In this document: piece by piece, positions 2,383 through 45,021 of the stretch | How positions within the stretch are numbered: position 1 is the first letter of the stretch | Layout: each line of letters begins with the position of its first letter | Assembly (NCBI RefSeq): GCF_003334385.1 | Contig: NZ_QOWN01000001.1 | Source: Escherichia coli | Lineage (GTDB): Bacteria; Pseudomonadota; Gammaproteobacteria; Enterobacterales; Enterobacteriaceae | Direction: 5' to 3' (one strand) | DNA length: 64,000 nt | The notes under the pieces: model-generated | What the model saw: only the letters and a program-made list of their open reading frames with translations | What the model was told of the DNA's origin: nothing | Databases searched by the model: none | Made by a program: the position numbers and the translations under genes

Positions 2383-3810
2383 ATGAGCGATAAAAAGAAG
2401 CGCAGTATGGCGGGTTTGCCGTGGATCGCGGCGATGGCCTTCTTCATGCAGGCACTTGATGCCACTATTCTTAATACCGCCTTACCCGCAATCGCTCATA
2501 GCCTTAATCGTTCTCCTCTCGCGATGCAATCAGCCATCATCAGTTATACGCTGACGGTGGCGATGCTTATTCCGGTAAGCGGATGGCTAGCCGATCGCTT
2601 CGGTACGCGTCGCATTTTTACCCTTGCCGTGAGTCTGTTCACATTGGGTTCTCTGGCCTGCGCACTTTCTAATTCGCTACCACAGCTGGTTGTCTTCCGG
2701 GTTATTCAGGGGATAGGCGGCGCAATGATGATGCCTGTTGCTCGGCTGGCCTTACTGCGCGCTTATCCTCGTAATGAACTTCTTCCAGTATTGAATTTTG
2801 TCGCCATGCCGGGTCTGGTGGGGCCAATTTTAGGCCCCGTTCTTGGCGGCGTGCTGGTCACCTGGGCAACCTGGCACTGGATATTTTTAATCAATATCCC
2901 CATAGGTATTGCGGGCCTTCTTTACGCGCGCAAACATATGCCCAATTTCACCACCGCACGACGCAGATTCGATATCACTGGCTTTTTGCTGTTTGGCCTC
3001 AGCCTTGTTCTCTTCTCAAGCGGAATAGAGCTATTCGGGGAAAAGATTGTCGCCAGCTGGATTGCCTTGACGGTAATTGTCACCAGCATCGGGTTACTGC
3101 TTCTCTATATTCTCCATGCACGACGCACGCCAAACCCATTAATTTCATTAGATTTATTTAAAACCCGCACTTTCTCGATCGGTATCGTAGGCAATATTGC
3201 AACCCGTCTGGGGACCGGCTGTGTACCGTTCCTTATGCCATTGATGTTACAGGTAGGATTTGGTTATCAGGCGTTTATTGCTGGCTGTATGATGGCACCG
3301 ACAGCGTTAGGTTCCATTATTGCAAAATCGATGGTTACCCAAGTCTTACGTCGTCTGGGCTATCGCCATACGTTAGTGGGGATCACGGTGATTATTGGGC
3401 TAATGATCGCTCAGTTCTCTTTGCAATCACCAGCAATGGCTATATGGATGCTGATCTTGCCGTTGTTTATATTAGGGATGGCTATGTCGACGCAGTTTAC
3501 CGCGATGAATACCATCACACTTGCCGATCTGACCGATGACAATGCCAGCAGCGGTAACAGTGTTCTGGCGGTCACGCAGCAACTGTCGATTAGTTTAGGC
3601 GTTGCTGTAAGTGCGGCCGTCCTTCGCGTTTATGAAGGAATGGAAGGCACAACGACTGTCGAACAATTCCACTATACGTTTATCACAATGGGCATTATTA
3701 CTGTTGCTTCAGCAGCAATGTTCATGCTTCTGAAAACAACCGATGGTAATAATTTGATCAAAAGACAGCGTAAATCTAAGCCGAACCGCGTTCCATCAGA
3801 ATCGGAGTAA
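2383..3810 (+). CDS. hsrA: MFS (DHA2-family) efflux transporter
   Basis: 475-aa polytopic membrane ORF with MFS signature stretches; good RBS spacing after yieP. Confidence 0.9.
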
Positions 3811-4768
3811 GTTGTAATCGTTGTTGCTGAAGGGTCGGCTGGGTTATCCGATGGATGAGTACATCAATCGCCAGCTCCCCCAGTTCATCTTTCGGTTGGT
3901 GGATAGTGGTTAATGGTGGCGTCATAAAGCTTGCCAGTTCGATATCGTCATAGCCAATCACCGCGATATCCTGCGGAACCTGTAACTCTGCCTGATATAA
4001 CGCCTGGTAAACGCCAACAGCCATAGCGTCATTTCCGGTAAAGACGGCCTGAGGACGCAGCGGATGTGATAGCAGTTGGCGCATAGCGTCAAACCCGCCG
4101 TTAAATTCAAAATCACCAGTGACTTCATAGCCATCAGGAATGTTGAGACCCGCACGTTTCATCGCCGCCCGATAACCTTCCAACCGCAGGCGCGCCGGAG
4201 TTTTATCCAGCGGGCCGGTAATACAGGCGATACGGGTATGACCTTTATCGATCAGATATTGCGTTGCTAAGTCTCCGCCCAGCAACGAGTTATCCTGAAT
4301 AAGATCGCTGTCGCCATCGAACGGAGCCCAGTCCATCATCACAGTAGGCACTGTCGGATAACGTTGCATGATTTCACGCGAAGGTTGATGCGTTTCGGTG
4401 CACAGTAACAGCAAGCCATCAACGCGTTTTTGCATCAGCGTTTCCAGATTGCGATTCATCCGCTGTTCATCGCCTTCGGTATTGCAAAGGACGAGACTAT
4501 AACCGCGTTCGAAGCAGCTGCGTTCAACGCCACGCACCAGTTCTGAATAGAAAGGATTGGTACTGGCAGTGATCAACATGCCAATGGTATGTGTTTGATT
4601 GAGTTTGAGGCTACGCGCCAGAGCTGATGGCGCGTAATTGAGTTCTTTAATCGCCGCTTCAACTTTGGCGGTAATCGCTTCACTGACGAAGCGATCTTTA
4701 TTGATAACGTGAGAAACTGTTGAGGTAGAAACGCCCGCCAGGCGGGCAACATCTTTCATTGTAGCCAA
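3776..4768 (-). CDS. rbsR: ribose operon repressor (LacI family)
   Basis: 330 aa; N-terminal LacI-type HTH ([23 protein letters not shown]) and periplasmic-binding-protein-like core. The 3' end overlaps the convergent hsrA by 35 bp. Confidence 0.95.
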
Positions 4769-9224: not shown

Positions 9225-9644
9225 TCAGAACGTCACGCCAGCACAGAGAATGATATTCGCATACGGAGAACATTCTCCGCTGCGAATTACCGCCTGACTT
9301 TCTGCGGTTTGTTGTTTGAATTGTTCATGCGTGGTGTAACGAATTTCAATGGTATTTCCCTGGTGTTTTTGCAGCTGCTCAAGGTGAGTGAGCAACGTTT
9401 CGTGGAGTTGCGGATTATGGTGTTTGATCTCTTCCGCGATAATGGCCGCCTCGACCTGCATTTCATTTGTGACGACGCCCAGCACCTGCATAAAAGAAGG
9501 TACACCCTGGGTTAATGCCATATCGATACGCGTTGTACTTTTGGGGATGGGTAAACCAGCATCACACACCACCAGCGTATCGGTATGTCCCAGACGGGAG
9601 ATCACCGATGAAATATCAGAATTAAGAACGGTGCCTTTTTTCAT
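9225..9644 (-). CDS. rbsD: D-ribose pyranase
   Basis: 139 aa from [14 protein letters not shown], matching RbsD; the ORF track extends to an in-frame upstream codon that overlaps the operator. Confidence 0.92.
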
Positions 9645-9655
9645 TTTTTTCTCCA

Positions 9656-9675
9656 TCAGCGAAACGTTTCGCTGA
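9656..9675 (-). promoter_or_regulatory. RbsR operator, perfect 20-bp palindrome TCAGCGAAACGTTTCGCTGA
   Basis: Perfect inverted repeat seen directly, 12-31 bp upstream of the rbsD ATG. Its CGAAACGTTTCG core is a LacI/GalR-type operator. Confidence 0.85.
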
Positions 9676-9810
9676 CCCACAGTTTAATCCTGACTGAGTT
9701 GGGAAAACCATCGTGACGTTACGGAAATGTGATCAACCTCGAAACGTTTTACATGGTGATTAACCATGAAAACAAAAACGCCCCCTTATGAAGAAAGGAG
9801 GCGTCTGGCG

Positions 9811-11679
9811 TTAGATTTCGACCTGAGTACCCAGTTCGATAACCCTGTTTGGCGGGATTTCAAATTGATCTGGTGCACGCAGCGCATTACGTTGCAGCAG
9901 CAAGTACAGCTTGCCGCGCAGACGCAAATACCACGGGCGTTTGCCGAGGATCAACGACTCATGCGACATAAAGAAGGAGGTTTCCATCATCCGGCAACTT
10001 AATCCTTCCAGACCGCAGCGGTGGAAAACTTCTTCTACGTTTGGCGTTTCTCGCCAACCATAACTTGCCACCACGCGCCAGAAAGTGGGCGACAGTTGTT
10101 CAATCTGTACCCGACGGACGTTATGGACATATGGAGCGTCTTCGGTGCGCAGAGTTAACAGAATCACCCGCTCATGCAATACCTTGTTATGTTTAAGGTT
10201 ATGCATCAGCGCAAAGGGAATGACGTTGATTGCACGCGACATATACACCGCGGTCCCGGGCACGCGAACAGGCGGTGATTTCTCCAGCGAAGCAATCATC
10301 GCTTCCAGAGAGTTACCATGTTCATGCATCCGCCGCAGCAAGCGGAAACGCTCGCTCTTCCAGGTGGTCATCACGATAAACATCACAGTACCGAGGCTCA
10401 ATGGCAACCAGCCGCCGGAGAGCAGTTTATCGAGGTTAGCGGTGAACAATGGAATATCGACACAAAGGAAAGCAATCAGGATCAGCGCAACAAAATACTT
10501 ATTCCAGTGCCAGTTCTGACGTGCCACGGTAGTCGAGAGAATAGACGTCAGCACCATGGTTCCGGTCACCGCAATCCCGTACGCCGCCGCCAGGTTGCTG
10601 GAGTGCTCAAAGCTGACAATCACAATCACGACCGCGACATAGAGCATCCAGTTCACAAACGGAATATAGATTTGCCCTGACTCCATTTCGGAGGTGTGAA
10701 TAATGCGCATCGGCGACAAATATCCCAGACGTACCGCCTGACGCGTCAATGAAAAGACGCCAGAGATAACCGCCTGCGAGGCGATTACCGTCGCCAGTGC
10801 GGCGATGATCAGCAGCGGGATCAGCGCCCAGTCCGGTGCCAAAAGGAAGAACGGGTTCTTAATCGCTTCCGGGTTCTTTAACAACAGCGCTCCCTGGCCG
10901 AAGTAATTAAGAGTTAAGGAAGGTAATACGACAGTGAACCACGCCAGACGAATAGGGAACTTACCAAAGTGTCCCATATCAGCATACAGCGCCTCGACCC
11001 CCGTAATCGACAGCACCACTGCCCCTAATGCAATAAAAGAAACCGTTTTGTATTCAAGGAAGAAATGCACCGCCCACATCGGATTCAGCGCATGCAGCAC
11101 TTCCGGGTTAGCAATAATGCTACGTAACCCCAGTCCTGCCAGAATCAAAAACCAGGTCAGCATGATCGGCGCAAACAGCTTACCGACCATAGCCGTGCCA
11201 TGCTTTTGAATCATAAATAATAAAGTGAGAACGATAATTGAGAGGGGAACTATCCAGGTATCCAGCTGCGGGGCGACGATTTCCAGACCTTCAATGGCTG
11301 ACATCACCGAAATAGCGGGTGTTATGACGACTTCACCATAGAAAAAGCTGCCGCCGATTAGCCCCATAATCACCAGCATTGATGTGGTTCGCGCCGACGT
11401 ATTACGCCCGGCAAGCGACATCAACGTCAGGATCCCCCCCTCACCGGCGTTATCTGCCCGCATCACGAAGGTGAGATATTTAATGGAAACCACAAAGATT
11501 AGCAGCCAGAAGATCAGCGATAAAAAGCCAAACACGGCATCGCGTTCAACGCCAAAACCAAACTGGCCGGACAAACATTCACGAAGTGTATATAACGGGC
11601 TGGTACCAATATCGCCGTAGACAACTCCAATCGCCGCGAGGGTAATCGCGGGCAATGATTGCTTATTATCAGTGCTCAT
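9811..11679 (-). CDS. kup: low-affinity K+ uptake transporter (KUP family)
   Basis: 622 aa; N-terminal 12-TM domain with the GDIGTSPLY motif and a C-terminal cytoplasmic domain. Confidence 0.95.

Positions 11680-36337: not shown

Positions 36338-45021
<8,684 letters not shown>

Follow-up and report, generated by a model that had tools for sequence, protein, structure and literature searches.

An upstream repeat of the operator core in the Escherichia coli rbs control region is probably a decayed remnant of a second RbsR operator fused to a CRP site

Comparison of rbs control regions across the Enterobacterales suggests that the repeat of the RbsR operator core found upstream of the main operator in Escherichia coli is likely the Escherichia remnant of an ancestral second RbsR operator, here referred to as O2, that was fused to a class I CRP site and has since decayed in E. 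coli. Four elements of this proposal, i.e., the architecture of the region, its conservation, the overlap of O2 with a CRP-type site and the decay in Escherichia, were established by the sequence comparisons described below.

The palindrome and its repeat map to the kup-rbsD intergenic region of E. coli. The stretch of DNA that we analyzed (64 kb; referred to as the window) is chromosomal, and the relevant genes are on its minus strand in the order kup (11679..9811), rbsD (9225..9644, with the ATG at 9644..9642), rbsA, rbsC, rbsB, rbsK, and rbsR (3776..4768). rbsD is the first gene of rbsDACBKR, and rbsR encodes a LacI/GalR-family repressor of 330 aa. Of 5,426 complete E. coli genomes, 5,412 contain the 261 bases around the palindrome and repeat, always with kup and rbsD annotated there. 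The rbs control region is bounded upstream by the kup terminator hairpin with its T-run (9776..9806, minus strand), and the rbsD ribosome-binding site GGAG (9651..9654, minus strand) directly adjoins the main operator, O1. Along the direction of transcription, the order is the kup stop codon, the terminator hairpin, ...CATGTAAAACGTTTCGAGGTTGATCACATTTCC..., ...GATGGTTTTCC..., ...GGATTAAACTGTGGG, TCAGCGAAACGTTTCGCTGA, and TGGAGAAAAAAATG.

O1 (9656..9675; TCAGCGAAACGTTTCGCTGA) is centered at 9665.5, approximately +9.5 relative to the inferred transcription start. As the earlier note on this DNA had claimed, it is a perfect 20-bp palindrome just 5' of the rbsD ATG, the arms at 9656-9665 and 9666-9675 being 100% complementary. 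O1 ends 12 bp before the ATG, between the inferred −10 box and GGAG, and a search tolerating up to 3 mismatches gave no second copy in the window. Its 16-bp core AGCGAAACGTTTCGCT (9658..9673) is invariant in 80 of the 80 rbsD loci that we compared. The remark of the same note that only one RbsR operator is classically described agrees with current practice; a structural preprint from 2025 takes the rbs operator (rbsO) to be the single site at 9651..9680, the 30-mer that was cocrystallized with RbsR (window 9680..9651), and both its crystal structure and its HX/MS work concern O1 only. The O1 palindrome is 20 to 22 bp long in Escherichia versus 16 bp (AGCG...CGCT) in 60 of 75 loci from other Enterobacteriaceae, and in the comparison of other Enterobacteriaceae with Escherichia (L006-L080), its right flank changes from GCTAGTGGAG to GCTGATGGAG. 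Based on this alignment, the perfect 20-bp form of the palindrome is specific to Escherichia.

The upstream repeat consists of 10 bp of the operator core (CGAAACGTTT; 9740..9749, plus strand), followed by a T at 9750. It lies 80 bp from O1 when measured start to start, in line with the distance of about 80 bp initially noted, and apart from the operator itself, it is the sole exact copy of this sequence in the window. To estimate how often such a repeat arises by chance, we looked in randomized versions of 9676..9810 for exact matches of at least 10 nt anywhere along the operator. Such matches occurred in 237 of 200,000 mononucleotide shuffles (0.12%) and in 520 of 200,000 first-order Markov simulations (0.26%). 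With P at ~0.001 to 0.003, the repeat is real and unlikely to be a chance match.

Seven of the 10 repeated bases (9740..9746) fall within a 22-bp CRP-type site (9725..9746, minus strand; CGT TTCGA GGTTGA TCACA TTT) that is centered at 9735.5, approximately −61.5 and thus in a class I position relative to the inferred start. The inner half TCACA is perfect; on the plus strand, it reads TGTGA at 9728..9732, so that the TGTGA motif reported earlier is present but one base away from the coordinates given for it (9729..9733). The outer half TTCGA (9739..9743), which is common to the CRP-type site and O2, matches at only three of five positions. Overall, 8 of the 10 CRP core bases match, and the bare pattern is at chance level in the window (28 matches versus 26.6 expected). 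Therefore, we base the assignment to CRP not on the bare pattern but on three other observations. First, GATCACA is invariant in all 80 loci as well as in Proteus, while the N6 spacer varies. Second, the center of the CRP site is 52 bp from the center of the −10 box in 73 of the 80 loci. Third, published physiology supports CRP dependence: deletion of cya lowers rbsD expression 3.6-fold (PMC4512719), and the rbsD promoter responds linearly to CRP activity, needs ~3 times more of it than lac and is the weakest of six sugar promoters (PMC4304618).

The −10 hexamer TAAACT (9681..9686, minus strand) was inferred from conservation across loci, in which the box reads TAAACT in 35 and TACACT in 30 cases (together 65 of 80). 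Taking the start 7 nt after this box (9686..9681) places transcription initiation at about 9674 (plus or minus 2), and the positions of the CRP center (−61.5), O1 (+9.5), and O2 (−71.5) are given relative to this inferred start. Our literature search, which included tables of a genome-wide start-site study, returned no measured rbsD transcription start. A scan of 9500..9950 for consensus sigma-70 promoters gave no match, as expected of an activator-dependent promoter. In the −35 region, a TGGTTTT block (9704..9710, minus strand) has near-maximal information content among 47 representatives and is a poor match to TTGACA. In addition, all genera have a strongly conserved block, TGGTTTTCTG, that is located downstream of the CRP site and ahead of the −10 box (window 9700..9722, minus strand CCGTAACGTCACGATGGTTTTCC). 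It matches a −35 element poorly and is preceded on its 5' side by GTTACGTCATGA in many genera but not in Klebsiella or Raoultella; contact with alpha-CTD or binding of another factor are possible reasons for the conservation of this block. Separately, a perfect CRP core (TGTGAATCGAATCACA) is present in an intergenic region at 54636..54651, ~45 kb from rbs, and presumably corresponds to the CRP site of the tna (tryptophanase) promoter.

To compare the upstream element among relatives, we used 80 rbsD loci, with one genome per species and RbsD proteins that are 86 to 99% identical, and aligned the upstream DNA on the operator. A full palindrome, (G)CGAAACGTTTCGA, occupies the place of the upstream element in all 75 loci from Enterobacteriaceae other than Escherichia, and 71 of these 75 loci have GCGAAACGTTTCGA. 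The O2 palindrome is 12 to 14 bp in these loci and identical to the O1 core, versus 8 bp in Escherichia, where all six sequences (E. coli, E. albertii, E. whittamii, two further clades, and the window) have TGTAAAACGTTTCGA. The distance between the centers of O2 and O1 is 78 bp in 6 loci, 79 bp in 46 loci, and 80 bp in 28 loci, and this variation arises between the −10 box and O1. By contrast, the center of O2 is 10 bp from the center of TTCGA-N6-TCACA in every locus.

A homology search with the RbsD protein gave only proteins that were at least 82% identical and added no phylogenetic depth; as outgroups, we used chromosomes mislabeled as plasmids in PLSDB. In Proteus mirabilis (Morganellaceae), O1 is ACAGCGAAACGTTTCGCTGA, O2 is AACGAAACGTTTCGAT and located 78 bp upstream, and TTCGA-TCGCCT-TCACA overlaps O2. 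P. mirabilis has the same layout; the arrangement is therefore older than the Enterobacteriaceae, and the form seen in Escherichia is derived. Operators in Vibrio and Photobacterium have the core ATCGAAACGTTTCGAT in other arrangements, and the Aeromonas motif is different. The Vibrionaceae core resembles the inner flank of the enteric O2; generally, there is one operator 79 to 90 bp before the ATG, but three are present in one Photobacterium, and V. campbellii has an additional one 127 bp upstream of the first. Unlike the enteric O2, none of these operators overlaps a TCACA half-site at a 10-bp offset.

Several records in this collection deserve comment in their own right. Three PLSDB "plasmids" of 4 to 5 Mb (NZ_OL790811.1, NZ_CP134663.1, and NZ_AP026896.1) are among the records that are whole chromosomes (of P. 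mirabilis, E. coli, and Aeromonas caviae), and such labels are a trap for plasmid statistics. A 599-kb plasmid of Vibrio sp. HDW18 (L082) has rbsD followed by a gene annotated as fucose permease fucP, not rbsA, and carries a perfect RbsR-type operator (TCATCGAAACGTTTCGATGG) 79 bp before the rbsD ATG. The contig CACSKA010000004.1, labeled Chryseobacterium sp. 18061 (L060), has an Enterobacteriaceae rbs locus that is almost identical to that of Citrobacter sp. 18056 (L058) from the same study, and the assembly is probably mislabeled or contaminated. The genome labeled Escherichia sp. ESNIH1 (L079) groups with Pseudescherichia (L070 and L078) and has a full O2. Finally, E. coli SCPM-O-B-8794 (L001) has a very different haplotype just upstream of O2 (CAGTATTGATCTCGATG versus CATGGTTAATCACCATG in the window, 9754..9775) and also differs between the −10 box and O1 (GCGAAT versus GTGGGT); only one spacer base is different in its O2 and CRP site, with the divergence ending abruptly at the O2 boundary.

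We quantified conservation as information content per column using the 47 representatives, which are <85% identical to each other. The 32 columns preceding O2 contain 0.33 bits per column, compared with 1.74 for the seven columns of O2 that the CRP 22-mer does not cover. The corresponding values are 1.87 for the half common to both sites, 1.17 for the CRP spacer, and 1.73 for the TCACA half. Thus, the conserved block starts abruptly at the outer edge of the palindrome, i.e., outside the 22-bp CRP site, and a CRP site alone does not explain the conservation because the outer GCGAAA is nearly invariant although it lies outside the CRP 22-mer. LacI-family proteins contact bases in the zone nearest the center, 7 bp to either side (PMC4052901). 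Over these 14 positions, the non-Escherichia O2 equals O1 at 13; the sole difference is an A for a C at +7, and this A also belongs to the CRP half-site. From its sequence, O2 looks like a compromise, with a near-perfect RbsR-type site of which the inner half is a mediocre CRP half-site (TTCGA versus TGTGA). As looked for in LacI-family operators, the site has a conserved place in orthologous promoters, the full site being present in all 75 non-Escherichia loci and Proteus and a degraded copy in all six Escherichia sequences.

These data also bear on whether the upstream element has anything to do with RbsR. It could in principle be a chance occurrence, a CRP site only, or a site of the PurR, Cra, or GalR type, given that two-mismatch CRP-like cores are common and that the AAACGTTT core is common to several LacI-family motifs; moreover, a motif resembling the operator in rbsD promoters of Vibrio was interpreted as a PurR site in one study (PMC1635313). 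Considering the P value for a 10-nt chance match and the near-invariance of the outer half of O2 beyond the CRP 22-mer, we assign this explanation a close to negligible probability. The consensus sequences of PurR and Cra are GCAAAC|GTTTGC and TGAAAC|GTTTCA, respectively. In a comparison by hand with consensus sequences, none of the three proteins fits O2 well; relative to CGAAAC|GTTTCG, which is found in both O1 and O2, PurR and Cra differ at the specificity positions 5 and 6, while the GalR half-site is one base out of register.

In E. coli, the remnant of O2 is a 16-mer (9738..9753) centered at 9745.5, approximately −71.5, that reads TGTAAAAC|GTTTCGAG on the minus strand versus the ancestral (A/T)GCGAAAC|GTTTCGA(T/C). 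The inner half-site and the central CG (9746/9745) are intact, leaving AAAAC|GTTT with a palindrome of 8 bp. The outer half is broken at 9750 (plus-strand T, ancestral C) and 9751 (plus-strand A, ancestral G), changing GCG to GTA on the minus strand; these substitutions are at positions 5 and 6 from the center of the outer half-site, both of which are invariant outside Escherichia. The E. coli O2 equals O1 at 11 of the 14 base-contact positions, with two of the three mismatches at 9750 and 9751, and thus falls short of the match in both half-sites expected of a LacI-family operator. Accordingly, each of the two initial suggestions for the repeat, that it serves as an auxiliary operator or belongs to the CRP site, holds in part, with the qualification that the outer half-site of the E. 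coli copy is broken.

Scoring with weight matrices trained on non-Escherichia sites gave 4.7 to 7.1 bits (z = 3.6 to 4.5) for the E. coli O2 versus 30 to 32 bits for O1. The E. coli O2 ranked 4th to 37th of 63,981 positions, and equal-scoring matches are inside long reading frames. In this check, which the earlier note had proposed, the upstream element was above background, yet this rank and score do not make it a confident positive. Because the training sites are almost invariant, the matrices over-penalize mismatches, and the low score of the E. coli copy may understate its affinity.

It has to be considered, then, whether 9738..9753 is still a working auxiliary operator in E. coli, at which lower-affinity binding of RbsR via the inner half-site and the central CG would, with the repressor at physiological levels, compete measurably with CRP and sharpen repression. 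In line with this idea, ten contiguous bases including a complete half-site are identical to O1, the E. coli O2 is the only intergenic match in the window other than O1 at its matrix-score level, and the six Escherichia sequences do not differ anywhere in the element, its altered half included, with a 35-bp tile over O2 and the CRP site being exact in 5,284 of the 5,426 E. coli genomes. However, the upstream flank, which looks unconstrained, is exact in 5,247 of these genomes, and the invariance of O2 within the species is therefore uninformative. In addition, both substituted positions are invariant elsewhere, the matrix scores are far below the ~31 bits of O1 and level with those of matches in coding regions, and, with RbsR being a dimer (see below), a weak site would have no help from tetramer-mediated looping. 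We consider a working operator in E. coli unlikely on this basis, although the invariance of the decayed half TGTAAAAC among the six Escherichia sequences could point to residual function. Rather, the sequence features suggest that the E. coli O2 is probably a weak or dead operator that is kept mainly as a CRP half-site, and that any RbsR binding there is unlikely to matter much.

We also evaluated other operator-like sequences in the window. A third core, CGAAACGTTG, inside rbsD (9393..9402, minus strand, one mismatch, 268 bp downstream of O1) recalls lac O2 in lacZ; it is probably a chance match, as one-mismatch cores of this kind occur at background rate (11 versus 6.2 expected) and other species vary with the codons there. 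The other high matrix matches (36754, 42557, 20572, 46079, and 27311) are all within long reading frames and were taken as chance. The best non-rbs matches to the RbsR matrix are TCAGCAAAACGTGTTGCTGC (36754..36773) and ACAGCGTGACCTTTCGCTAC (42557..42576), in reading frames of 290 and 402 codons, respectively.

Based on the layout conserved among relatives, we infer that RbsR would bind at O2, that it would exclude CRP when bound, and that the E. coli copy would be functionally weak. In the ancestral composite element, the promoter-proximal half-site of O2 (consensus GCGAAAC|GTTTCGA) would also serve CRP as the half of its site that is farther from the promoter (TTCGA). A center-to-center distance of 10 bp places O2 and the CRP site on the same helix face, with ~9 bp in common; from geometry, RbsR at O2 should exclude cAMP-CRP. 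Without ribose, the promoter would be under a double lock, with RbsR at O1 (~+9.5) blocking RNA polymerase and RbsR at O2 blocking the activator, and ribose would free both locks. In the Escherichia stem lineage, the two adjacent substitutions from GCG to GTA (9750 and 9751) would then have destroyed the outer half-site. The 10-bp core would survive mainly because seven of its bases form the CRP half-site, and the dual use of this half-site would explain its poor match as an outer half for CRP, which fits the unusually high CRP activity needed by the rbs promoter. The lengthening of O1 coincides with the decay of O2, and this may be compensation or coincidence.

The presence of two operators 78 to 80 bp apart in every genus examined could alternatively reflect a DNA loop between O1 and O2, as formed between lac O1 and O3 or gal OE and OI, in which the upstream site would raise the local repressor concentration at O1. 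Looping by GalR dimers is possible with the help of HU. RbsR aligns end to end with the dimeric PurR and is without the C-terminal tetramerization helix of LacI, which aligns only to ~residue 310; accordingly, RbsR has no counterpart of the LacI residues beyond ~330 that form this helix. According to the 2025 preprint, the operator DNA in the RbsR complex is bent by ~45 degrees, as would suit a loop, but RbsR is predominantly a dimer from 10 nM to 3 µM, which speaks against bridging of two operators other than with assistance from HU. Moreover, with spacings of 78, 79, and 80 bp, the helical phase between O1 and O2 is not fixed, and ~7.5 turns would place the two operators on opposite faces, whereas the offset between O2 and the CRP site is strictly fixed. 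We regard looping as highly improbable; the dimeric state of RbsR, the variable O1-O2 distance, and the fixed 10-bp CRP offset together best support competition with CRP.

The proposed arrangement has precedents as well as distinct features. Like the E. coli rbs copy, lac O3 is a degenerate and weaker version of the main operator that is located upstream, in the activator region of a class I CRP promoter with a LacI-family repressor and a main operator just past the start. lac O3 (~−82) abuts the CRP site without sharing a half-site, whereas the centers of the rbs O2 and the CRP site are so close that the two sites overlap. The systems also differ in that LacI is a tetramer and O3 acts through looping, while RbsR is a dimer, and in that lac O3 is weak, while O2 is a strong predicted site in most enteric bacteria. 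At deoP2 and cdd, an example of anti-activation in which a repressor displaces or captures CRP, the LacI-family repressor CytR targets, as we suggest for RbsR, the CRP sites of a catabolic promoter and not RNA polymerase alone. Its binding is cooperative with that of CRP and takes place between two CRP sites; in contrast, the rbs geometry predicts competition at one shared half-site.

Second RbsR sites may already have been cataloged, judging from site counts only, because the RegPrecise RbsR regulog for the Enterobacteriales has 17 RbsR sites for 11 regulons (Ravcheev et al. 2014, PMC4052901, supplement 1). The same study reported more than one predicted site for ~20% of LacI-family operons and highlighted intersite distances of 13, 22, and 32 bp; its text makes no mention of an overlap with CRP, a 78- to 80-bp spacing, or decay in Escherichia. 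In the literature searched, whose coverage did not extend to the original footprinting and SELEX work, we found no statement of the shared CRP half-site, its range in the Enterobacterales, or the Escherichia-specific loss.

Auxiliary operators and repressor sites over activator sites are familiar from lac O3, gal OE, and CytR with CRP, and our proposal adds incrementally to a type of control that is already well understood and introduces no new principle. Because nearly all relatives keep the second site intact, the textbook one-operator rbs promoter of E. coli is the exception in its family, and it is this operon, with RbsR, that is used as a simple one-operator model and as a source of parts for synthetic circuits. 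Tentatively, and in the form of a working model about which we remain somewhat doubtful, we suggest that the Enterobacterales would use a double lock in which RbsR evicts CRP via the shared half-site, that Escherichia would have lost the second lock by two substitutions, with the lengthened O1 (from 16 to 20-22 bp) perhaps compensating, that the single-operator rbs promoter would thus be derived and atypical, and that its weak response to CRP would be the cost of sharing. If so, ribose induction and catabolite control would be coupled at the DNA level in most enteric bacteria but no longer in E. coli, and the rbs promoter would provide a clean natural case of regulatory-site decay in a model organism and an explanation for its intrinsically weak CRP site.
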